Below, in pieces: positions 4,157 through 27,609 of a stretch of 32,000 nucleotides of DNA. The notes below the pieces were generated by a model. That model was not told the DNA's origin, searched no databases, and worked only from the letters and a program-made list of their open reading frames with translations. Numbering within the stretch: position 1 is the first letter of the stretch; every line of letters starts with the position of its first letter. This DNA comes from Candidatus Methylomirabilis limnetica (GTDB taxonomy: Bacteria > Methylomirabilota > Methylomirabilia > Methylomirabilales > Methylomirabilaceae), in contig NZ_NVQC01000009.1 in NCBI RefSeq assembly GCF_003044035.1, positions 120,001-152,000 on the forward strand. Direction: 5' to 3'. The position numbers were made by a program, and so were the translations under genes.

Positions 4157-4277
4157 GTTCTCCCTTCGCGTCGCTCAGGGAGAACGCGGAGCTGAGCCGG
4201 TACCTCTTCCCGCCGCTCCGCTCCAGGAGAACCAGAGGCACGAAACCGACCACTACGCGGCGGCTCAGCCCCGCGTT
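4157..4277 (+). repeat. Palindromic boundary repeat type C (attC-like mini-unit), copy 1
   Basis: The unit reads G|TTCTCCC-N13-GGGAGAAC GCGGAGCTGAGCCGG...CGGCTCAGCCCCGCG|TTAAAT. It is about 90% identical to 8164..8284, and homology to that copy starts at GTT and stops at GTTA. Confidence 0.8.
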
Positions 4278-6650: not shown

Positions 6651-6800
6651 ATGATACGACAGACGGTGTTCCCTTTCAAGCTGCAACGGAGCGACGAGAC
6701 CTTGACCGCCCACGGAGGTTTGGCCCTGCTGGCCGAGTATAACCACAGTCTGGGGCTGCGGACCCTGGCTGATCGGCATCTGCCCAGTCCTAGAGAAAAA
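6651..6800 (+). pseudogene. N-terminal remnant of a DDE transposase (IS1380/IS4-like), cut off by the repeat motif
   Basis: MIRQTVFPFKLQRSDETLTAHGGLALLAEYNHSLGLRTLADRHLPSP resembles IS1380-type transposase N-termini as I remember them. The frame ends in the TAG of GAAAAATAGGG at 6795-6803. Confidence 0.5.
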
Positions 6801-7362
6801 TAGGGACAGACACTATTTATCGTGGTGATTCGTGGCGTGTACGGTCATGATCGTGCATTCCACGGATTACTCGAATCGTTGTACCCGGCCACCCGTATCA
6901 TGTGACGCGAAAATAGGGACAGACACTATTATCGTGACGATTCGTGGTGTTCGCGGTCATGATCGTGCAGGCCACGGATTGCTCGAATCGTTGCACATGG
7001 CCACCCGTATCATGTGACGCAACGAGGGAATTATCGCTAGGCGGCCTTTCGGCACGACAGCGATTCGAAAAATAGGGACAGACACTATTATCGTGACAAT
7101 TCGTGGTGCTCGTGGTCATTATCGTACATGTCATGGATTGCTGGAATGGTTGCACCAAGCCACCCGTATCATGTGACGCAACGAGGGAATTATCACCAGA
7201 CGGTTTTTCGGAACGACAGCGATTCGTAGGCACACGATGACAGAGCGACCACTGGGAAGAGATGGGTTCATCTGGGAGGTGCGCAGGAAACTGGGACGAG
7301 TAATACGCGTGTTGCAGAGGGGAAGGCCAAGACAGGACCTCAACGAATAGTGTCTGTCCTTA
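6795..7362 (+). repeat. Module A array: two 3'-truncated copies followed by one full 290-nt copy
   Basis: Each unit starts at GAAAA(A)TAGGGACAGACACTATT (TAGGG at 6801, 6914 and 7073). Unit 1 stops after ~108 nt and unit 2 after ~154 nt. Unit 3 runs to the inverted repeat AATAGTGTCTGTCCTTA at 7346-7362. Confidence 0.85.
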
Positions 7363-7486
7363 TACCCTACCCATCCGGCGAGGTGTCAGACTGCGTGTCC
7401 GGCATCTGGGATGAACTCGCGGCTGGCGCGCCAGGAGAAGACGCTCCGGCCGGGGTGCGCCTACCACCCTGACTGAATCTGCCGAA

Positions 7487-7558
7487 CCGCCGTATACGTG
7501 ATCCGTATGTACGGTGGCGTGGGAGGGGGGAGGCCGTGAGGCCCCTCCCTATCCCGAT
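7487..7558 (+). ncRNA. Group II intron domains V and VI (class C type)
   Basis: Domain V is CCGCCGUAUACGUGAUCCGUAUGUACGGUGG: a CGC triad, a 2-nt bulge on the 3' strand and a 5-bp upper stem. Domain VI is a G-rich/C-rich helix with a GUGA loop and a bulged A at 7551, which is 7 nt from the ...GAU end. Confidence 0.8.
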
Positions 7559-7573
7559 TGGTTTTTACGCAGA

Positions 7574-7603
7574 TTGACAACGATTGAAGATTCAGGCCAT
7601 ATT
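7574..7603 (+). promoter_or_regulatory. Candidate sigma70-type promoter for the phd-like gene
   Basis: TTGACA (7574-7579), an 18-nt spacer and CATATT (7598-7603) lie about 30 nt upstream of the start codon. This rests on a pattern match only. Confidence 0.3.
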
Positions 7604-7634
7604 TGGTACCACTAATGGACTGGAGGTTATCATA

Positions 7635-7922
7635 ATGAAAATTAAAGAAGACATTAAACCCATTTCTTATTTGAAGTCTCGGTCTGCTGATTTAATATCC
7701 CAAATTAACGAAACTCGTAGGCCAGTGATAATTACTCAGAATGGTGAACCTCGTGCAGTTATTCAGGACGCGGAGTCCTATGAAAAAACAATCAATTCTC
7801 TAAACTTAATGAGAATATTGGCGCATGGAGAGAAAGCCATCCAAAAAGGGGACACCATCAAACAAGAAGACCTTTTTAAGCGAATTGATGAAACCTTAAT
7901 GAAAAGGAAGACACATCAATAG
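7635..7922 (+). CDS. Phd/YefM-family type II antitoxin
   Basis: MKIKEDIKPISYLKSRSADLISQINETRRPVIITQNGEPRAVIQDAESYE is a Phd/YefM signature. An RBS (TGGAGG) lies 8 nt upstream of the ATG at 7635. Confidence 0.8.
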   Translation: MKIKEDIKPISYLKSRSADLISQINETRRPVIITQNGEPRAVIQDAESYEKTINSLNLMRILAHGEKAIQKGDTIKQEDLFKRIDETLMKRKTHQ

Positions 7923-7925
7923 ACC

Positions 7926-7987
7926 ATGAAAAGATTCGGGGTTGAGTGGGCTCAGCCAGCGAGTAATATAGAAATAGGCAAGGGAAA
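7926..7987 (+). pseudogene. Truncated RelE/ParE-like toxin gene (first ~20 codons only)
   Basis: An ATG lies 3 nt after the phd stop. It reads MKRFGVEWAQPASNIEIGKG and then runs straight into the repeat motif GAAATAGGGACAGACAC. The call rests on position and on the N-terminal pattern. Confidence 0.35.
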
Positions 7988-8166
7988 TAGGGACAGACAC
8001 TATTATTGTGCATGAATCGGTGTTCCAGAGGGCCGTCAAAGAGGCAAGGCTCAGGGCTGGCATAGAAAATATGGACAGCGACTATTTGTTTGGATTTGCC
8101 TGCATCGGCTGATAACCAGGGCATCAACTCGGACACGGCTTCGCCGCGTCGGTTATGCCCGCCGTT
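7985..8166 (+). repeat. Boundary repeat unit (hairpin motif, recombinase-like fragment, second hairpin motif, type B arm)
   Basis: The unit is collinear with 14288..14472. Its last ~100 nt are also collinear with 17941..18042. Homology ends at GCCCGCCG|TT (8158-8166). Confidence 0.85.
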
Positions 8167-8284
8167 CTCCCTTCGCTTCGCTCATGGAGAACGCGGGGCT
8201 GAGCCGGTGCCCCTTCCCTCCGCTCCGCTACGGGAGAACCAGGGGCACGAAACCGACCGCTTCGCGGCGGCTCAGCCCCGCGTT
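8164..8284 (+). repeat. Palindromic boundary repeat type C (attC-like mini-unit), copy 2
   Basis: GTTCTCC (8164-8170) is complementary to GGAGAAC (8186-8192). The perfect 17-nt arms AACGCGGGGCTGAGCCG (8190-8206) and CGGCTCAGCCCCGCGTT (8268-8284) pair with each other. An inner stem is GTGCCCCT/AGGGGCAC. Confidence 0.85.
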
Positions 8285-8348
8285 AGCTGACTTGTGCGAT
8301 TGCTTCGCGATCACAGTTCGTTCTGGTTAGACAAAGTGATTCAGAAAA

Positions 8349-8365
8349 TGGAATGTTTCATTCCA
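8349..8365. promoter_or_regulatory. Inverted repeat upstream of katG, candidate operator
   Basis: TGGAATG-TTT-CATTCCA lies about 40 nt upstream of the katG ATG. The regulator is unknown. Confidence 0.25.
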
Positions 8366-8376
8366 CGCAGCCGTAG

Positions 8377-10602
<2,226 letters not shown>

Positions 10603-10609
10603 GCGTGGT

Positions 10610-11085
10610 ATGAGCGTTTTCGAGGGCTTCACAGGACGGCAGAAGCGGTCAGCTAACAGCCGGTTCCAGCGGACGGCGCTGCGCGCCGCCGCTGAACCGG
10701 AACGTTGGGCGGCGTGCGGGCATCTGCCTGAGCCGAATGGGAGAACCGTCATCCCGACACTCCACCTGATGTGTGGCCTTCCGTGCTCGGGGAAGACAAC
10801 GCTTGCAAGGCAACTGGCGTCCACGCATCGTGCGGTCCGGCTAACGCCAGACGAGTGGCACACGCGCCTGTTTGGCCAAGATGCGGATTCACCCGAGCAC
10901 GATGTTCGGCACAGCGTCGTAGAGTCGCTCCAGTGGGAGGTCGCCGTCCAGGTGCTTTACCAGAACGTAGACGTGATTCTGGACTTCGGATTCTGGAGCA
11001 AGAGCGAGAGGGAAGACTACCGATCGAGAGGGGATGAGATCGGAGCAGAGATGCGCATTCACTACCTGAATGTGCCCGAGAAAAA
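10610..11085 (+). pseudogene. P-loop kinase (AAA_33/zeta-toxin-like), 3'-truncated by module A
   Basis: The Walker A motif is MCGLPCSGKTTLARQL. The native sequence ends at ...IHYLNVPEK, where GAGAAAAATAGGGACAG begins. The stop codon lies inside the repeat (tracked ORF end 11110). The start codon is uncertain. Confidence 0.55.
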
Positions 11086-11375
11086 TAGGGACAGACACTA
11101 TTTATCGTGACAATTCGTGGTGTTGACGGTCATGATCGTGCATGCCACGGATTACCCGAACCGTTGCATCCGGCCACCCGTAGTCTGTGAGGCAACGGGT
11201 GAATGATCGCCAGGCGATCTTTCGAAACGATAGCGATTCGAATGCGTAAGATGACATAGCGGCCACTGCAAATAGACGGGGTCATCTGGGAGGTGCGCAG
11301 GAAACTGGATGAGTAATACACGTGTTGCAGAGGGGAGCACCAAGAAAGGATTTCAATAAATAGTGTCTGCCCCTA
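11081..11375 (+). mobile_element. Module A, solitary copy (290 nt, bounded by inverted repeats)
   Basis: The ends are TAGGGACAGACACTATT (11086-11102) and AATAGTGTCTGCCCCTA (ending at 11375). The interior is collinear with 7073-7362 and 16226-16517. No intron 5' or 3' parts flank this copy. Confidence 0.8.
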
Positions 11376-11573
11376 TATCCGAACGGTGGCGTTGCCGCTC
11401 CGCTGCGGCGGAATGGCAACGCCGAGCGGATCAAGGATCCGCTGGCTGGCCTCCACTTCGCTACGGTCAACCAGCGGATCTAGTGGACTACAGCTCAGCC
11501 GAGCAAGCTCGGCTCCGCTTCCGCCGCTCATCCGCGCGGTATTAGGCCGATTTTTAGTTGAAAGGAGCGATCC

Positions 11574-11717
11574 ATGAACCGTCAGTTCCCAATTCTTTCC
11601 GCCCTCTCGGTTGTTCCTCGAGCCCTTGGATGGCTCGTGCTCGCCGGTGGGGTTGAGTGGGGTTGGAAGTTCCTCTCTCCCCCTTGCCGGCGTCTCCGTA
11701 GTCATCGCCGCGGATGA
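11574..11717 (+). CDS. Possible 47-aa hydrophobic peptide
   Basis: A strong RBS (AAAGGAG) lies 7 nt before the ATG. The product is MNRQFPILSALSVVPRALGWLVLAGG.... I recognise no homology, and the ORF is too short for the ORF track. Confidence 0.2.
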   Translation: MNRQFPILSALSVVPRALGWLVLAGGVEWGWKFLSPPCRRLRSHRRG

Positions 11718-11788
11718 AATCGCCTATGGTTAGAACCATCGAATGTTCGCGCCGATTCCTCTGGCACGGTGCCTGCTTCTTCTCGGGC

Positions 11789-14251
11789 ATGGACCGAATC
11801 GCGCTCACCATCGCAATCGTCGTCGCTGCTCTCGGATCGGCGCACGCGACACCGCCCGTCGTCCCCGAGCCCGCGCCGATGTGCGTCGAGAACCCGCTCG
11901 AAGGCATGGAGCGGCCGCTCCGCGATACCTCCGAGTGCCCGAGCTTAGCGGCGACGGTCCGCACGATCCGCGCGGTCGCCGCCGAGTTCTTCAAGGACTG
12001 CTCGCTCGATCGCCCCGAGGTCGGGAGGAAATACTCGGAGATCGCCTCGCGCTACGTCGGCATGCCGCCGCAGACGGGTCTGCCAATGATGGTCGCCGAG
12101 TTCGCCTCCGAGGTCGGCAGTGACGGAACGCGCTGCGCGATCCGCGCCGTCGTCAAGGAGGGGTTGCCGGTCAGCAGCGAGACGCGGGAGCAGCTCGTAT
12201 CGGTCGTCAACGGGTTCTTCGAGGCGCAGGACGTCAAGGATCTCTTCGAAGACATCGCCGAGAGCGCGCCGCTGACCGCGGCCGCCAACTTAAAGCGCGA
12301 CGAGCTCTCCAGGAAGTTCGCCAACGAGCTGAACGACCGGGTCGCGGCGTCCGAGGAGCTCCGCGGGAACGCCAACGATTTTCAGTCGCTGAGAGCGAAG
12401 GTCATCTGGGCTATCACGGACGATTCGGCCCGGGCGCGTGCCGCACTCGGCGCGGTCGAGGAGTCGCTCGTTACGTGCAGGGTCGTGGAGGCGGCCAAGA
12501 GCCTCTCCGAAGCCGTAGCGGCCGGCCAGCGCGCCTTGCAAGGCGCGCGGCGCGAGATCCGTGCTTCCGAGAGGGCCGCGGAATGCGCGGAGATCAACCT
12601 TCGACTACAGTACGGCGAGGCCTGGAACCTACAACAAGCGGTCATCGCCGGACCGACGCTCGACCAGTATCGGAGCGTCGTGGCTGCGATCCAGAGGTTG
12701 AAGCAGGACGAAAAGGCGCTCGACGCGTTGCTGCGGCGAGCGGGCGAGAGCTGTCTGCGATTGAAGCAGCAGGTCGGGGTCCGCGACCGGCTGGTCGCCC
12801 ACCATACCGCCGCGAAGGCCCGCGCCATGGCTGCGATCGACGGACGCGCCTGCGACGGCTCGGGGATCGAGGAGGCCGCCGCCACGTTGCGCACTCTGGA
12901 AGGCGCCACCTGCGGCAACCAGGCGAAGCCCGCGGCCAACGAGGTTCTGACCAGGCGCGCGGTGCTCCGCGACGAGCTGCGGCAGAGCGGCGAGTGCAGC
13001 GCGGCGGCGGGCGTGGGTGCGGGCGAGTTCCAGGGCCCGTGGCAATGCCCGCAGCGAGGCACGCTCATGCTCCAGGGAAGCGCAACCGGGGTCAGCGGGT
13101 CGGTGAGCGGCCGCCCAGGCGAGCACTGGGGGACGGGCCAACGTGAGGGAGGGCGGATCGGCGGAACCGTGGAGGGCCGCACGCTTCGCTTGACGATGGA
13201 ATCTGGCGACGGGACCACGAGCCGCATGACGGCGACGTTGTCAATGGACGGGCGCACGATGTCCGGCCCTTGGGAGTGGTTCCGCGGCCCCGCCCGATTG
13301 GACGGTGGCACGTGGAGCTGTCAGCGGCCGGCGGGTTACGCCGGCGGAGGGACTGCTGCGGGGAGAGAGACGGCTTCGCGCAGGACCGCTCGGGTGCCCG
13401 ATATGGTCATTCCCGTCGCGGGGCACGTTGCCAGAACCGGCGGCGGAACCGATCCGTATCAGACGCTCACCGTGCGCGCCCACATCGAGCCCGAGCGGAT
13501 CTCGTGGATCGCATGGAATGACCGACGCGACGTCTCGCTCGTCGTCGCGTCGCGGCCGAACCAGAAGCTGCTAGGTCCAGGGGGCTTCGGAACCGACGAC
13601 TACATCGATCTGACCGTCACGGACCCGTTGGGACGCTCGATGACCGTCAAGATGGATCAGAACGACAAGTACGGCGCATCCTACGGGCCACAGAATCTCA
13701 TCCTCGGATCTCGCGCCAACGCGCCCGCCGCCTACCGCAAGATCCCGTTCGGCCCGACGGCGGGCCAGGAGCTGTTCTTCGACCAGGACGGGGCCTTCAA
13801 CTCGCTGTTCACGAAGGCGGGTCAGTACACGTTCACGTTCGCGTTTCGAGACAACGAGGGGGGCAGGACGGGGTATGGGCACACGAGCATCTTCCTCATC
13901 ATCGCCGCCAGGCAGTCGGCACTCGAAGGCACCGCGGCGAGCGGCGCTCCGGTCGCGCCGGGTTCGAAGAGTCTCTCGTTTGGCGGACGCGTGCTCGACG
14001 TGAGGTACGAGCGCCAGACCGATGAGCGAGGCGTACCGATCGATCTCTACTTCTACCGCACGGCAGCGCCCCCGGGCGTTCCCGCACCCGCCGGCGAGGC
14101 CCAGTGGAGCCGCTTCGTGCGCGTTCCGGCGGACGGGGGCGACTCGAGCGAGCCGGCGGTCTGGTGGCACTCGCGCTGGGAATTCGGTCCAAACGGCTGG
14201 ACGTCGATGGGCGAGAAGGACGTCGCGCCGCCGCAAGCGGTGACGCCGTAA
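11789..14251 (+). CDS. Large secreted hypothetical protein (helical/coiled N-terminal half, beta-rich C-terminal half)
   Basis: The signal peptide is MDRIALTIAIVVAALGSAHA. The frame stays open for 820 codons in a very GC-rich stretch. I recognise no domain. Confidence 0.6.
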   Translation: MDRIALTIAIVVAALGSAHATPPVVPEPAPMCVENPLEGMERPLRDTSECPSLAATVRTIRAVAAEFFKDCSLDRPEVGRKYSEIASRYVGMPPQTGLPMMVAEFASEVGSDGTRCAIRAVVKEGLPVSSETREQLVSVVNGFFEAQDVKDLFEDIAESAPLTAAANLKRDELSRKFANELNDRVAASEELRGNANDFQSLRAKVIWAITDDSARARAALGAVEESLVTCRVVEAAKSLSEAVAAGQRALQGARREIRASERAAECAEINLRLQYGEAWNLQQAVIAGPTLDQYRSVVAAIQRLKQDEKALDALLRRAGESCLRLKQQVGVRDRLVAHHTAAKARAMAAIDGRACDGSGIEEAAATLRTLEGATCGNQAKPAANEVLTRRAVLRDELRQSGECSAAAGVGAGEFQGPWQCPQRGTLMLQGSATGVSGSVSGRPGEHWGTGQREGGRIGGTVEGRTLRLTMESGDGTTSRMTATLSMDGRTMSGPWEWFRGPARLDGGTWSCQRPAGYAGGGTAAGRETASRRTARVPDMVIPVAGHVARTGGGTDPYQTLTVRAHIEPERISWIAWNDRRDVSLVVASRPNQKLLGPGGFGTDDYIDLTVTDPLGRSMTVKMDQNDKYGASYGPQNLILGSRANAPAAYRKIPFGPTAGQELFFDQDGAFNSLFTKAGQYTFTFAFRDNEGGRTGYGHTSIFLIIAARQSALEGTAASGAPVAPGSKSLSFGGRVLDVRYERQTDERGVPIDLYFYRTAAPPGVPAPAGEAQWSRFVRVPADGGDSSEPAVWWHSRWEFGPNGWTSMGEKDVAPPQAVTP

Positions 14252-14287
14252 ACAGCGTAAAAATAAAAATAAAATAGGAAAAATAGG

Positions 14288-14472
14288 AATAATAGGGACA
14301 GACACTATTTATCGTGAATGACTCGATGATCCAGAAGGCCGTCAAGGAGGCAAGGCTCAGGGCTGGCATGGAAAATAGGGACAGCGACTATTTGTTTAGA
14401 TTTGCCTGCATCGGCTGATAACCAGGACATCAACTCGGACACGGCTTCGCCACGCCGGTTATGCCCGCCGTT
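14288..14472 (+). repeat. Boundary repeat unit (hairpin motif, recombinase-like fragment, second hairpin motif, type B arm)
   Basis: The unit is collinear with 7985..8166 and ends at GCCCGCCG|TTATGCG (G at 14470). Stuttered partial starts (AAAATAGG AAAAATAGG AATAATAGGG) precede it at 14271-14297. Confidence 0.85.
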
Positions 14473-14551
14473 ATGCGCCTTAAAAATAAATCCTTCAAAT
14501 AATCCAATGAATGTGTATGATATAGTTATATATACACATAGGAGGTAAGGT

Positions 14552-14746
14552 ATGAGAACGAATGTAGTCATAGATGACGATCTGATGGAATCCGCCCTCA
14601 AGGTGTCCGGCCTCAGAACAAAAAAGGATGCCATAGAAGAGGGGTTGAAACTGTTGGTGCAAGTCAAACGCCAGAAAGAAATTAAGCGGTTTCGAGGAAA
14701 ACTCAAATGGTCTGGTAATCTCGACGAGATGAGGTTAGACAAATGA
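14552..14746 (+). CDS. vapB: VapB-family type II antitoxin
   Basis: MRTNVVIDDDLMESALKVSGLRTKKDAIEEGLKLL is typical of the VapB/DUF2191 type. Its stop overlaps the vapC start by 4 nt. Confidence 0.8.
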   Translation: MRTNVVIDDDLMESALKVSGLRTKKDAIEEGLKLLVQVKRQKEIKRFRGKLKWSGNLDEMRLDK

Positions 14747-15138
14747 TTCTCGTTGATTCGTCCGTCTGGATCGACTACTTCAACGGCAATAAAACGTCTC
14801 AGACGGACTGGCTGGACTCTTCACTTGGAAATACACCCATCATCATAGGTGATCTTATCCTAACCGAAGTTCTTCAGGGATTTCAGAACGATAAAGACTT
14901 TAAGACAGCCAGGGATATTCTCTTAGGTATCCCATTTATGTCGATGGGAGGACAGGTATTAGCCCTAGAGAGCGCCATGAACTATAGATTGTTGAGGAGA
15001 AAAGGCGTGACGGTAAGGAAGACCATAGACGTCATGATTGGAACTTTCTGTATCCACCACCAGCAAACATTGTTGCATGATGACAGGGATTTCGATCCGA
15101 TAGTTAAGTTCTTAGGCCTGAAGACAATAGTCACATAA
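14743..15138 (+). CDS. vapC: VapC PIN-domain toxin
   Basis: MILVDSSVWIDYFNG...DLILTEVLQG...HDDRDFD contains the PIN acidic residues in the usual order. Confidence 0.85.
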   Translation: MILVDSSVWIDYFNGNKTSQTDWLDSSLGNTPIIIGDLILTEVLQGFQNDKDFKTARDILLGIPFMSMGGQVLALESAMNYRLLRRKGVTVRKTIDVMIGTFCIHHQQTLLHDDRDFDPIVKFLGLKTIVT

Positions 15139-15316
15139 CCAATCAAACCACCGGACCCTCGTTCCTCGTGCCGGTGATCTTTTCGTTGGCTCGTAAAATG
15201 AATACTGTGGAGAAAAACAAATATGCAGGCACAAAACGAAACATTATCTGAGAGTGCCGCTGAAGGGCGCGTCTCTCAGCGTCGTACTCCAGAACCGTAA
15301 CTAACGGAGGTGACAC

Positions 15317-15793
15317 TTGAAAAATAGGGTTTATATCGAAACTTCGGTTATTAGTTATCTCACGGCACGCCCAAGCAACGACATCCGTGCAATAGCCAAT
15401 CAGAATGTCACCATCGAGTGGTGGGAGACGCAGCGGCTCAATTTCGATTTATTCATATCGGAGTTTGTCGTTGCTGAAGTAAGTCTTGGGCATCCTGACG
15501 CCGTAAAGCGACGTCTTGAGGCAATCGCCGACATTATGGAGCTGGAAGCAACAGAAGAGGTCCGGGTGCCGGGCCAGGAACTTATCCGGCGCAACGTTTT
15601 GCCCGCAAATGCCGAAATTGACGCTTATCATGTGGCTATTGCTACCGTGAACGGCATCGAATATCTTCTGACCTGGAATTGCACTCATATTGCTAATGCT
15701 CATACACGGCCAAAGATTGAGGCCACCTGTCGGGCGCTTGGTTACGAGCCGCCCATCATCTGCACACCGCAAGAACTAACGGAGGAGGTTTAG
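15317..15793 (+). CDS. PIN-like domain protein (toxin-type)
   Basis: The start is TTG with a GGAGGTG RBS. MKNRVYIETSVISYL...AEIDAYHVAIATVNGIEYLLTWNCTHI matches a PIN-like family that is usually paired with a small downstream gene. Confidence 0.65.
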   Translation: MKNRVYIETSVISYLTARPSNDIRAIANQNVTIEWWETQRLNFDLFISEFVVAEVSLGHPDAVKRRLEAIADIMELEATEEVRVPGQELIRRNVLPANAEIDAYHVAIATVNGIEYLLTWNCTHIANAHTRPKIEATCRALGYEPPIICTPQELTEEV

Positions 15794-15795
15794 CT

Positions 15796-16032
15796 ATGTG
15801 GCAAGACCCTATCGTCAAGGAGACGCGTACACTTAGAGAAGAATACGCCAATCAGTTCGATCACAATGCTGACGCGATATTTCAAGACATTTTGCGAAGG
15901 CAAGCCGCATCTGGTAAAAAACTGGTTTCTTTCAAGCATCGCAAACCTGTGCCATCGAAAATTGCAGCAAAACAGGAAAGACCAGTTTCAAGCTTACACA
16001 CTTCAACGGCTGCAATAAAACAGAGCAAATGA
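15796..16032 (+). CDS. Small partner protein of the PIN-like gene (putative antitoxin, reversed gene order)
   Basis: It starts 2 nt after the PIN stop. MWQDPIVKETRTLREEYANQFDHNADAIFQDILRRQAASGKKLVSF resembles small proteins that commonly sit next to such PIN genes. Confidence 0.5.
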   Translation: MWQDPIVKETRTLREEYANQFDHNADAIFQDILRRQAASGKKLVSFKHRKPVPSKIAAKQERPVSSLHTSTAAIKQSK

Positions 16033-16094
16033 GCGAACGTCCAACCAGCGGCTCGACACCGACCGGGCTTCGCCCGGGCAGCTCAGCCCGCCGT
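16033..16094 (+). repeat. Boundary-repeat right arm (type C-like) forming the intron 5' exon
   Basis: ...ACCGACCGGGCTTCGCCCGGGCAGCTCAGCCCGCCGT resembles the right arm of type C (AACCGACCGCTTCGCGGCGGCTCAGCCCCGCGT) and contains the stem CCGGGC/GCCCGG. A weaker relative lies at about 11466-11510. Confidence 0.6.
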
Positions 16095-16220
16095 GTGTGC
16101 CGGGCATGGCACAGAACTGACGGGGTGCAAGTCCCCGTGCCAGGTTTAAGCAGAGCCGAAGGCTAGGAGAAGGGCAAGAGCCTGCCCCGGACTCGATCCG
16201 GGGGCGTCATCGTGAGGTGG

Positions 16221-16517
16221 GAAAATAGGGACAGACGCTATATATTGTGACGAGTCGTGGTGTTTACCGTCATGACCCGCGCCTTGCTACGGATTACCTG
16301 AACCGTTGTACCCGGCCACCCGTATCATGTGATGCAACGAGGGAATGATCACCAGGCGGTCTTTCGGCACGACAGCGATTCGAAGGCACACGATGACAGA
16401 GCGGCCACTACGAAGAGACGGGTTCATCTGGGATGTGCGCAGGAAACTGGACGAGTAATACACATGTTGCAGAGGGGAACACTAAGAAAGGATCTCAATA
16501 AAGAGTGTCTGTCCCTA
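16221..16517 (+). repeat. Module A copy nested in intron domain I
   Basis: The copy runs from GAAAATAGGGACAGACGCTAT... to ...AGAGTGTCTGTCCCTA. The flanking intron sequence GGUGGG/CCCAgCC could close a helix around it, so it appears to sit in a hairpin loop. Confidence 0.8.
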
Positions 16518-16636
16518 TACCCAGCCGGCGAGGTACCAGACTGCGTGCCCGGCATCTGGGATGAACTCGCGGCTGGCGCGCCAGGAGAAGACGCTCCGGT
16601 TGTGATGCGCATACCACCCTGACGGAATCTGCCAAG

Positions 16637-16708
16637 CCGCCGTATACGTGATCCGTATGTACGGTGGTGTGGGAGGGGAGAGGCCGTGAGGACTCCCCCT
16701 GTCCCGAT
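16637..16708 (+). ncRNA. Group II intron domains V and VI
   Basis: Domain V (CCGCCGUAUACGUGAUCCGUAUGUACGGUGG) is identical to the copy at 7487. The domain VI helix differs from the other copy by one apparently compensatory pair. The position of the bulged A is a G here (16701). Confidence 0.8.
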
Positions 16709-16775
16709 TCTCCCTTCCCTCCGCTCCGGGAGAACCATGGGCACGAAACCGACCGCCTTGCGACACATGGGAGCT
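16709..16775 (+). repeat. Degenerate, internally deleted type C repeat (intron 3' exon)
   Basis: TCTCCCTTCCCTCCGCTCCGGGAGAACCATGGGCACGAAACCGACCGCC is type C with a deletion between two CCCTTC direct repeats. The right arm has diverged. Confidence 0.65.
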
Positions 16776-16780
16776 GAAAG

Positions 16781-17884
16781 ATGCCTTCTCTTTTTCAATG
16801 GAACGACACGTTTCTGACCCATATTGACTCCGTTGATGAACAGCATCAGCGACTGGTTGGCCTGATTAACCAGCTTGGCGACATGGTGATGTCTGGCAAG
16901 GATTTTGATCCTCAGTCGCTTGCCTCGGTTCGTGACAGCATCCTGAACTATGCGATCGTTCATTTCGGTGACGAAGAGGCATTGATACGCACTGCGGGGC
17001 TTGATCCGAGATATCTCCAACGACAGTATTCCGACCATAAGGTCTTCATGCACGAAGCCACTGTTCTGGGAGACAAGGAGAGCACTCTCTCCATAGAAAA
17101 GATCATGCGTCTGGAAAACTACCTTGTCTATTGGCTAGTCCGTCATATCCTTGAAGTTGACCATAGCATGGTCCGCCAGATCCATGCTATGCGCGAGGGA
17201 AAGACACCAACCGAGGCGTTCGATCTGGAAAACGAGCTGCAGAACTCCAGCGCCGAACCCCTGTTGTCGGCAATGAATGGGCTGTTCCTCGTTGTCTCCG
17301 AGCGCAATCGTGAACTCTACGCCTTGAACCGTGATCTGGAACAACGCGTGGAGCAGCGAACGATGGAGCTGGAGCAAGCCAACCGGGAGTTGCAACTGCA
17401 GTCCACGCACGATGATCTGACGGGATTGCCCAACCGCCGATTCGCCATGCTCAGCCTCGACCAGCTATGGAAGGAGCGACAACGTTATGGCGAGCCGCTT
17501 TCCCTGCTGTTGCTCGACGCCGACCATTTTAAGCAGGTAAACGATAGTTTTGGCCACGCCCAAGGTGACGAACTCCTCCGGATTATCGCCGAGCGTTTGC
17601 GCCAGTCCGTGCGTGCCAGCGACATTGTCCACCGCCTCGGCGGCGATGAGTTTCTGGTGATCTGTCCAAGGAGCGACCGAGAGGGTGCCACGGTAGTCGC
17701 CAACAAGATCCTGACTGAATCCAGACCATTGCAAACCGCGGAAGGTGTGGAATGCTGGGATGGATCCTTGAGTATTGGCATTGCCGAGTGTAACAGCTCC
17801 ATGGCCCGGCATGAAGATCTGCTGAAAGCCGCCGATCAGGCCATGTACCTTGCAAAAAGCAAGGGTGGCGGATGCGCAGTCTGA
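16781..17884 (+). CDS. Hemerythrin-domain diguanylate cyclase (GGDEF)
   Basis: The N-terminus WNDTFLTHIDSVDEQHQRLVGLIN is of the bacteriohemerythrin type. A coiled linker follows. The C-terminal domain carries DDLTGLPNRR...LLLLDADHFKQVND..GH..GD...RLGGDEFLV, an intact GGDEF motif. Confidence 0.85.
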   Translation: MPSLFQWNDTFLTHIDSVDEQHQRLVGLINQLGDMVMSGKDFDPQSLASVRDSILNYAIVHFGDEEALIRTAGLDPRYLQRQYSDHKVFMHEATVLGDKESTLSIEKIMRLENYLVYWLVRHILEVDHSMVRQIHAMREGKTPTEAFDLENELQNSSAEPLLSAMNGLFLVVSERNRELYALNRDLEQRVEQRTMELEQANRELQLQSTHDDLTGLPNRRFAMLSLDQLWKERQRYGEPLSLLLLDADHFKQVNDSFGHAQGDELLRIIAERLRQSVRASDIVHRLGGDEFLVICPRSDREGATVVANKILTESRPLQTAEGVECWDGSLSIGIAECNSSMARHEDLLKAADQAMYLAKSKGGGCAV

Positions 17885-17940
17885 ACATCGAAAGTGAGGG
17901 CAGGAAATATGAGAATTGGATTGCGTGAAGGTGGAATTGA

Positions 17941-18042
17941 GAAAATAGGGACAGCGACTATTTGTTTAGAGTTGCCTGCATTGGCTGATAACCAGGACAT
18001 CAGCTCGGACACGGCTTCTCCGCGCCGATTATGCCCGCCGTT
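17941..18042 (+). repeat. Boundary repeat (hairpin motif variant plus type B arm) at the right end of the island
   Basis: The repeat runs from GAAAATAGGGACAGCGACTATTTGTTTAGAG... to ...GATTATGCCCGCCG|TTGAGCGC. The G|TT junction (18040/18041) is 8 nt from the mfnF-like stop codon. Confidence 0.85.
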
Positions 18043-18048
18043 GAGCGC

Positions 18049-26859: not shown

Positions 26860-27513
26860 TCAGTTGGTGCCAGTCTTCATCCGGTGAGACTTCTGTGGGC
26901 CAGGCTCCGGTAAAAACTCCTGATTAATCGGGATCCCTCTGCGGCACATCGGGCAGTTCTTCGGGGCGTACGTCGGGAATTCCCGGTCGACCAGCGTAAA
27001 AAAGGGGAACGTGAAGTTCACCTTTCGAATCCGTCGCCAGAGTGTCCCGATTCCAACCACCGTCCCGCCTAATGAGTTGACCAGTTTAATAAGCTCCTTG
27101 ACAGTCTCACCAGTAGTCACAATGTCTTCGACAATCAGCACCTTAGGGTTACCAACAAAGTACTGCCGAAATCCCCTCGGAAGAGCTACATAGCTGACAC
27201 CGGACTCATCGCGTTGCTTGCCGGCATAGATGAAGCGGGGTCGCAAAGGATGAGCGCGCGCCACGCAATGGCCCAGCAACGAGGCGCCGTAGCCGGTGGT
27301 AAGGACCAGGTCGATCGGCTCCTCGGCGAAATGCTTTGCGATCACGTCTCCTAACCCTTCCGTGAAGGCCGGCTCGGTGGTAGCTAACGCCTTCTCCACG
27401 TACTCCTGGGCGTGACGCCCCGAGGACAATACGAAGTGATCGTTCGTGAGATACGCTCCGGTCCTGAGGATGATACCCCGGTTGATCCGCTCCAAGATCT
27501 CTGCGTCCATCAT
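26860..27513 (-). CDS. Phosphoribosyltransferase (orotate-PRT-like)
   Basis: The PRPP-binding motif is VLIVEDIVTTGETV. Candidate starts are ATG 27513 or 27510, or GTG 27522. Confidence 0.65.
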   Translation of the reverse strand: MMDAEILERINRGIILRTGAYLTNDHFVLSSGRHAQEYVEKALATTEPAFTEGLGDVIAKHFAEEPIDLVLTTGYGASLLGHCVARAHPLRPRFIYAGKQRDESGVSYVALPRGFRQYFVGNPKVLIVEDIVTTGETVKELIKLVNSLGGTVVGIGTLWRRIRKVNFTFPFFTLVDREFPTYAPKNCPMCRRGIPINQEFLPEPGPQKSHRMKTGTN

Positions 27514-27554
27514 AATCCTCACGCATTATGGCTGTTCAGCTACCGGCCGTCCCT

Positions 27555-27609
27555 GTAGGGGTAGGGCTTGCCCTACCCAAAGAGGGCGCAGCAAGCAGCG
27601 CCCCTACGC
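27555..27609. repeat. REP-like double-hairpin extragenic repeat, copy 2
   Basis: The sequence is GTAGGGGTAGGGCTTGCCCTACCCAAAGAGGGCGCAGCAAGCAGCGCCCCTACGC. It lies between the glyS stop and the PRT start. Confidence 0.8.

Follow-up and report, generated by a model that had tools for sequence, protein, structure and literature searches.

A probable relic of an ORF-less group IIC intron, its core replaced by a foreign repeat, at an attC-like site of Candidatus Methylomirabilis limnetica

In a 32,000-nucleotide stretch of the genome of Candidatus Methylomirabilis limnetica (assembly GCF_003044035.1, contig NZ_NVQC01000009.1, positions 120,001 to 152,000; hereafter the window, in whose numbering unlabelled positions are given), an attC-like repeat is split by a 614-nucleotide (nt) insert, G16095-T16708, that begins and ends like a group II intron of class C (group IIC). 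Is this insert a compact intron without an open reading frame (ORF), as a first, sequence-only reading proposed, or only what is left of one? We consider it very probably an inert, decayed relic of a non-autonomous group IIC intron whose protein gene had been deleted, with its core replaced by a repeat here called module A.

The insertion point is GT|T of the attC-like repeat, exact to the nucleotide. Its left junction reads ...GCCCGCCGT|GTGTGCCGGGCATGG..., with 16094 as the last base of the flank, and its right junction ...CCCTGTCCCGAT|TCTCCC, with 16708 as the last base of the insert. The unbroken 15-mer GCCCGCCGTTCTCCC is found at 8157-8171 in an empty site of the same window (site a, 8110-8171, plus strand, junction 8165|8166 in GCCCGCCGT|TCTCCC), and in an alignment the joined flanks are colinear with 8100-8290 across the junction. 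Since the flanks are colinear with empty paralogues, the insertion is defined to the nucleotide. Flanks and empty site are as the sequence-only reading described them, apart from its slightly shorter limits for the latter (8158-8170). Uninterrupted paralogues number three in the window: besides site a, there are site b (14414-14476, plus strand, GCCCGCCGT|TATGCG, junction 14471|14472), directly 3' of an ORF of 845 amino acids, and site c (17984-18046, plus strand, GCCCGCCGT|TGAGCG with R' GTTGAGC, junction 18041|18042), directly 3' of a hemerythrin-GGDEF gene at the right edge of a cassette island; b and c both end GCCCGCCGT|T. The locus lies in a 170-kb metagenome contig (ERZ4201064 NODE_33), and all four contigs of the locus that reach the site carry the insert, none of them showing an empty-site allele.

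The 5' exon of the interrupted site (site d, 16039-16094, plus strand) was delimited from its sequence, its colinearity with the empty sites, the DNA folds of its paralogues and the layout of the aadA1 attC in pR148 (NC_019380). It consists of R'' GTCCAAC (16039-16045), an imperfect palindrome with the apical hairpin CCGGGC-TTC-GCCCGG, and the first bases of R', GT; the insert splits R', the remaining TCTCC lying at 16709-16713. This is a short attC layout that parallels the aadA1 attC. R'' of site d conforms to the consensus RYYYAAC. As to the R' consensus GTTRRRY, GTTGAGC of site c fits, GTTATGC of site b has one mismatch and GTTCTCC of sites a and d is a poor match. The bottom strand of site a folds with an AAC/GTT box, a spacer and a bulged stem; fold z-scores of the sites are weak, -0.25 to -2.3.

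Judged by homology, both termini of the insert are securely of intron origin. Relatives were collected by scans for the 5' motif GTGTGCCSGGCATGG, 10-14 nt, GGGTGNNAGTCCC, which occurs at no fewer than 120 genome loci, from many phyla, and at no fewer than 120 metagenome loci (L-numbers below are locus labels of this analysis). Against these loci and plasmids, intron homology of the insert is limited to element positions 1-126 and 532-614. The 5' fragment (16095-16221, plus strand), delimited by homology to L125, L099/L227 and the pR148 intron, by the continuation of L175 and by the RF02001 alignment on L014, holds GUGUG, the 5' strand of the domain I basal helix, stems IA/IB and a lineage-specific extra hairpin of 23 nt. 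Its last element is the IC1 GNRA hairpin (CAUC-GUGA-GGUG), and it ends at about position 16 of the RF02001 model. The conserved 5' sequence of IIC introns, GUGYG followed by the basal helix strand and IA/IB (GTGTGCCGGGCATGG...GGGGTGCAAGTCCCC), is present here. The GUGUG start claimed for the insert is borne out by the identity of its first 87-126 nt, 85-95%, to the 5' ends of genuine group IIC introns (89% over 108 nt to L125, 93-95% over 87 nt to L099/L227); with the pR148 intron the first 87 nt share 82.8%. No second copy of the intron 5' end is present within the window.

At the other end, the Rfam model Intron_gpII (RF00029) matches over its full length at 16635-16708 (plus strand), covering domain V (helix 16637-16667), domain VI and the AU terminus and ending exactly at 16708. 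The match scores 31.3 bits, short of the gathering score of 40, with an E-value of 4.6e-4 when 1 kb is searched. Genuine relatives of the lineage score 37-43 bits with the same model, and their domains V-VI are 84-91% identical to those of the insert at DNA level. Domain V, domain VI and the AU end, all named in the sequence-only reading, are thereby recovered, be it below threshold. That reading had also remarked on the branch position, which is indeed G16701 here; it is A in all eleven aligned relatives, and A7551 in a second copy of the element treated below. The branch region reads CCCUAUCCCGAU in relatives versus CCCUGUCCCGAU in the insert.

Between these termini the ribozyme core is missing. 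Rfam, run at gathering threshold on the whole window, gave no match, and in a sensitive rerun on 15900-16900 neither RF02001 (domain I core) nor RF01998 (domains II-III) matched even at E<=10. On relatives (L077, the pR148 intron, and the ORF-less L014 of 410 nt, L195 of 677 nt and ten others) RF02001 scores 46-137 bits, the intact ones reaching 100-137, while RF01998 gives 38-54 bits in 10 of 12 short relatives scanned and also matches the pR148 intron. Covariance models, which the sequence-only reading had itself proposed as a check, thus detect domains V/VI below threshold and fail on the 5' part, an outcome that it had named as counting against an intron. Aligned with eleven ORF-less relatives, the window element keeps only L195 positions 1 to ~107 and ~492 to 677. 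The gap (L195 positions ~108-491, about 385 nt) is occupied by module A, and its left break falls directly after the IC1 GNRA hairpin: L175, which has the same 23-nt extra hairpin, runs on GTGAGGTGG|GGTTTGGAGGAAGCCCA where the window has GAAAATAGGGACAG, that is, module A. Gone with this gap are the regions of domain I that bear the exon-binding sites and the closing strand, domains II and III, and the beginning of domain IV. What had been described as a very small domain I is, by RF02001 and the L195 alignment, a domain I whose core has been deleted. The deleted part of domain I is also the one in which EBS1 and EBS3 (exon-binding sites 1 and 3) would pair with the target.

The segment between module A and domain V (16523-16634, plus strand) is what is left of domain IV and of the part of the gene that coded for the N-terminus of the intron protein, as indicated by homology to L195 and eight other relatives and by a translated match to L160. 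It is 74% identical over 93 nt to the block just before domain V in L195, and its translation GIWDELAAGAPGEDAPVVM versus GVWEETGVGATEEDTQVVL matches the protein N-terminus of the full-length introns L160 and L173 (BLASTP E 2e-7, residues 4-37); only ~35 N-terminal codons remain. The block GGGATGAACTCGCGGCTGGCGCGCCAGGAGAAGACGCTCCGGTT directly before domain V aligns with 11/11 ORF-less relatives, and the ORF-deletion junction GAAGACGCTCCGGTT| that ends the stub is likewise the same in every one of these eleven. This common junction implies that the window element descends from a lineage that was already ORF-less and presumably mobilised in trans. A different assignment, of 16523-16630 to the C-terminal end of the protein gene, was rejected, Smith-Waterman scores against full-length relatives being no better than those of shuffles. 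With the proteins of seven relatives as queries, tblastn over the whole window gave a best E of about 0.1, so that the reported lack of a reverse transcriptase ORF holds for the window.

The same stub explains the closing helix CCGGGCA/UGCCCGG attributed to the intron. Both 7-mers exist; the 3' one (TGCCCGG, 16547-16553) lies in a stub hairpin that varies among relatives, and the genuine domain I closing strand of relatives (CUUACCCCGGGAG) has been deleted from the window element. The description as an ORF-less group IIC intron needs a similar amendment: the insert is IIC-derived and comes from a lineage that had already lost the reverse transcriptase gene, but it is not intact.

Could it still be a functional compact intron, splicing from cassette transcripts, mobilised by a reverse transcriptase encoded elsewhere and tolerating module A within a small domain I? 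Its boundaries are correct, its insertion precise and its domain V and AU end conserved; a 9-nt complement joins 16099-16107 and 16546-16554; and the intact ~650-nt ORF-less relatives residing at many sites make trans mobilisation plausible for the family. However, both core models stay blank on a sequence whose every intact relative matches them strongly, the 385-nt loss takes in exon-binding sites and domains II-III, the supposed closing strand belongs to the variable protein-remnant hairpin, the branch A is mutated, and not one of the 240 listed related loci contains module A. We regard a working intron as extremely improbable and the decayed relic as the far better description.

Module A occupies 16220-16522 (plus strand) of the insert, as delimited by self-BLAST, alignment of its copies and a 17-mer census, its left boundary being ambiguous by 1-2 nt. 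It is a repeat of ~300 nt with 17-nt terminal inverted repeats (ATAGGGACAGACACTAT), here at 16225-16241 and 16502-16518. Three full copies exist (7067-7369, 11080-11382 and the one in the insert), together with 3'-truncated copies at 6795-6908 and 6908-7067; all partial copies retain the left end and abut the next copy. The solitary full copy at 11080-11382 (plus strand) has no intron sequence around it and cuts the 3' end of an AAA_33 ORF (10610-11110). The copy at 6795 cuts a 50-codon stub (6651-6800) that resembles a transposase N-terminus and has no Pfam match. The terminal 17-mer occurs 13 times in the window, always at 6800-17961, inside the cassette island. Five solitary left-end motifs (7987, 8069, 14292, 14375 and 17945) stand upstream of attC-like sites: pairs 82-83 nt apart precede the sites at 8110 and 14414 at a fixed distance, and the site at 17984 has the proximal one only.

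Searches of Rfam, plasmids, viral contigs and the 240 listed related loci gave no match to module A; plasmids, viral contigs and these loci likewise yielded no autonomous, transposase-bearing parent. No coding capacity was detected in it, and its fold signal is weak (z-score about -2). Terminal inverted repeats, small size and several copies are features of miniature inverted-repeat transposable elements (MITEs), and module A resembles elements of this type in its length of ~300 nt, its 17-nt inverted repeats, its multiple copies and its interruption of ORFs. Unlike a typical MITE, it shows no visible target-site duplication at the three full copies, and its partial copies all keep the left end. 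On these sequence features we treat it as a MITE-like independent insertion element. The Phd antitoxin gene is followed directly, at 7926-7985, by the beginning of an ORF (MKRFGVEWAQPASNIEIGKG...) that a left-end motif of module A truncates, perhaps a leftover of the partner toxin gene.

The window contains a second, 5'-truncated copy of the element at 7067-7558 (plus strand), made up of module A (7067-7369), the stub (7370-7484) and domains V-VI (7485-7558). Self-BLAST aligns 7069-7559 with 16222-16709 at 85%; by parts, identity to the insert is 82.4% in module A, 87.8% in the stub and 89.3% in domains V-VI, and a 31-mer of domain V (7487-7517) is identical at 31/31 positions. This copy has the same junction between module A and intron as the insert, ends exactly at the intron 3' end, adjoins a different 3' exon (T7559 GGTTTT...) and precedes an unrelated gene. 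Most likely, two independent intron insertions took place and were later homogenised by ectopic gene conversion. Of the 16 positions at which L003, a contig of the insert's locus from a different sample, departs from the window, 15 lie within 16368-16468 of module A, and some of them match the module A copy at 7067; this pattern fits gene conversion or recombination among module A copies, or else an assembly chimera.

The shared junction at two loci, and the exact stop of the second copy before a different 3' exon that again begins with T, could also be read as the mark of a composite of intron ends and module A that spreads as a unit and has reached two or more attC-like sites by means of an intron ribonucleoprotein acting in trans, or by transposition of module A carrying the intron 3' part along. 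We give this very little credit. The 5' stub is found in one copy only, and no such composite occurs among the at least 120 listed metagenome loci with the 5' motif, a set that does not include the window's own contig. Reverse splicing requires the deleted domains, sequence carried over by transposition should not stop at the end of the intron, and the copies of module A are about equally diverged from each other (82-85%). It is just as improbable, in our estimation, that the hollowed chimera was copied between attC-like sites after loss of the core, for example by a related intron's ribonucleoprotein acting on the termini and domains IV-VI, or by recombination at the intron ends; if it was, an element derived from a group II intron would have spread despite having lost its own ribozyme.

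Several points weigh against the decayed relic with homogenised copies as we describe it. Plain DNA duplication would not explain the shared junction together with the exact 3' stop of the second copy. Domain V is identical at 31/31 positions against ~88% for the rest of the 3' part, to which a rough Poisson estimate assigns a chance of about 0.03; the cause could be a constraint that still acts, or conversion by copies that are active at other places in the genome. Moreover, the inactivity of the insert is deduced from missing domains, and the search for a reverse transcriptase and for intact copies covered the window.

The relatives of the insert bear on its entry. They include an ORF-less group IIC family of about 410-730 nt, with domains I-III intact by Rfam, one shared ORF-deletion junction and the stub retained, whose members each sit at a different hairpin followed by CGT|T (L195 2338-3014, L149 31-677, L155 80-725, L225 1910-1262, L137 1196-1845, L168 1076-419, L216 2450-1835, L198 31-756, L151, L226, L239 and L014 909-500). 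Among the metagenome matches listed, 23 of 39 elements recovered with both ends are shorter than 1 kb. Members of ~580-730 nt (L195, L149, L225 and others) agree with the window element in the 5' end, the remnant of the protein N-terminus, the deletion junction and domains V-VI; they retain domains I-III, which the window element has lost and in whose place it has module A. For ORF-less bacterial group II introns, mobilisation in trans is presumed (Zimmerly & Semper 2015, PMC4424553).

Two further kinds of relative were observed. Remnants of 219 nt (L125 1523-1305, L224 9523-9305 and L153 4417-4635) have domain I joined to domain V at a shared ACGTGA microhomology; they carry the 23-nt extra hairpin of the window element and are its closest 5' relatives among the matches listed (L125 and L224 89%, L153 86%). 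L091 (859-4721) is a relative of 3.86 kb whose protein gene begins at about nt 2290, with ~2 kb of extra sequence in the intron 5' half.

Target choice is strikingly uniform in the lineage. Among the matches listed (L007-L247), positions -3/-2/-1 are C/G/T in 113-116 of 117 distinct sites, and +1 is T in 35/35, often followed by AGR to give GT|TRRRY; the consensus R-R-C-G-T|T-(A-G-R) equals the GTTRRRY R' core of attC-type sites. Group IIC introns insert directly behind a DNA hairpin, with a short IBS1 (intron-binding site 1) and with IBS3 as the first base of the 3' exon; the insert shows this hallmark, a DNA hairpin followed by ...CCGT|T. That its insertion speaks for an attC-like nature of the repeat, as proposed earlier, is supported by the preference of the lineage for CGT|T of an R'-like core across these 117 sites. 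In 71 of 97 listed lineage sites, the 200 nt upstream include the stop codon of an ORF that runs in the sense direction and has 90 codons or more. The co-orientation with the cassettes, regarded as unusual in the sequence-only reading, is real; with these 71 sites and the pR148 intron co-oriented in the same way, it is the norm of the lineage and not odd.

In pR148 a full intron of the lineage interrupts the aadA1 attC at AAGCGT|TAGAT; it stands on the strand of the cassettes, with aadA1 and qacEdelta1 as its neighbours. An intron of Candidatus Contendobacter (L033) shows the same arrangement. Like the insert, the pR148 intron occupies GT|T of the R' core, after a hairpin and on the cassette-coding strand, and its domains V/VI are related; the junctions are AAGCGT|GTGTG...CCCGAT|TAGAT in pR148 and GCCCGCCGT|GTGTG...CCCGAT|TCTCCC in the window. 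The pR148 intron is about 1.83 kb long, scores 117 bits with RF02001 and 54 bits with RF01998 and has an ltrA gene, all of which the window element lacks. A group IIC intron from Enterobacter cloacae (Rodriguez-Martinez et al. 2012, as cited in PMC7923331) likewise occupies the top strand of an aadA1 attC. The known IIC-attC introns of the S.ma.I2 type insert into the bottom strand of attC at R'' (TTGT/T), opposite to cassette transcription (PMC3001079, PMC7923331). They share with the insert the class C ribozyme type, the attC hairpin as target and the GT|T of a core site, and differ in strand and core: the window element lies in the top strand at R' (CCGT|T; RCGT|T in the lineage), co-oriented with the flanking ORFs. 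From the target sequences, the lineage would appear to be the top-strand counterpart of the bottom-strand IIC-attC introns.

The following history would account for the insert. An ORF-less intron of ~650 nt would have entered site d in its top strand, at the CGT|T of R' and in the orientation of the upstream gene. Reverse splicing and reverse transcription, served in trans by the protein of a related intron, would have brought it in, a mechanism taken from that of the family. Later, module A would have come to replace about 385 nt, the loss being evident and its order and manner our reconstruction. The branch-point A has mutated to G, and there remain a 5' stub of 126 nt, module A, the protein N-terminal stub and domains V-VI. 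As the core of domains I-III is gone and no group II ribozyme fold is left, the element should neither splice nor move. By splitting the R' core (GTT to GTG...), it probably disables site d for recombination.

The insert adds 614 nt of untranslated sequence ahead of the hemerythrin-GGDEF gene, lying 72 nt upstream of its start codon on the same strand. This position, the identity of domain V in both copies and the presence of the insert in all four contigs would suit a co-opted remnant that serves as a structured 5' leader or regulatory RNA of this gene, or as a cassette lock through destruction of the R' core. Yet no promoter-like or terminator-like sites were found in a scan of 15700-16900, the strain-level differences of L003 fall inside module A, the second copy precedes an unrelated gene, and there is no evidence of conservation outside this organism. 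We hold such co-option to be very unlikely; for the decayed relic, a passive effect only is likely.

The cassette island spans about 3.8-18.05 kb, between methanofuran and methanopterin biosynthesis genes, with genes for 4-(hydroxymethyl)-2-furancarboxaldehyde-phosphate (4-HFC-P) synthase and an amino-acid-kinase family protein as left neighbours and hydantoinase and ATP-grasp genes on the right. Its genes are the toxin-antitoxin genes Phd and VapB/PIN, a second PIN-like gene, katG, an AAA_33 kinase gene, the 845-aa ORF, which has no Pfam match, and the hemerythrin-GGDEF gene. Attachment-like sites of the attC kind follow ORF stops (7922, 14251, 16032 and 17884), and no integrase domain was found in 28 window ORFs scanned with Pfam. 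At best, the island looks like an array of the CALIN type (cluster of attC sites lacking an integron-integrase).

Two other repeat families were seen in the window. An attC-like palindrome of a second type, ~100 nt long, is found at 4179-4276 and 8186-8283 and in part at 16718-16762. Its bottom-strand DNA folds at -38.9 kcal/mol (z -6); it abuts site a, with ~20 nt between them, and includes a tandem duplication of 47 nt, which has collapsed in the copy on the downstream side of the intron. Outside the island, near the window ends, a direct repeat of ~100 nt (1472-1571 and 27507-27609) with the palindromic unit TGTAGGGGCAGGGCTTGCCCTGCCC... resembles repetitive extragenic palindromes (REP-like); its two copies are 79% identical overall and 95% over a 56-nt core.

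The literature already documents group IIC introns at attC sites, some of them in the top strand, as well as ORF-less derivatives and intron fragments within CALINs (PMC3001079, PMC7923331, PMC4424553), and fragmented introns are reported to outnumber full-length ones in bacterial genomes (PMC7923331). The insert is a decayed new example among these. Like UHB.F1 and H.ha.F1/F2 (PMC7923331), it is a degenerate remnant in an attC array with no integrase nearby, and would be non-functional. Those fragments are 5'-truncated and keep parts of the protein gene; the insert keeps both termini, is hollowed internally and has a foreign repeat in the gap.

At this locus the finding matters little: it lengthens the list of degenerate group II fragments in cassette arrays, and annotation of the insert as a functional or minimal intron should be avoided. 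It does independently mark the repeats of the island as attC-type targets. Of wider interest are the ORF-less derivatives of ~650 nt, which are common in metagenomes, whereas a 2015 review called bacterial ORF-less group II introns rare (PMC4424553). They are the better subject for the study of trans-mobilised mini-introns and of their possible link to integron cassettes.

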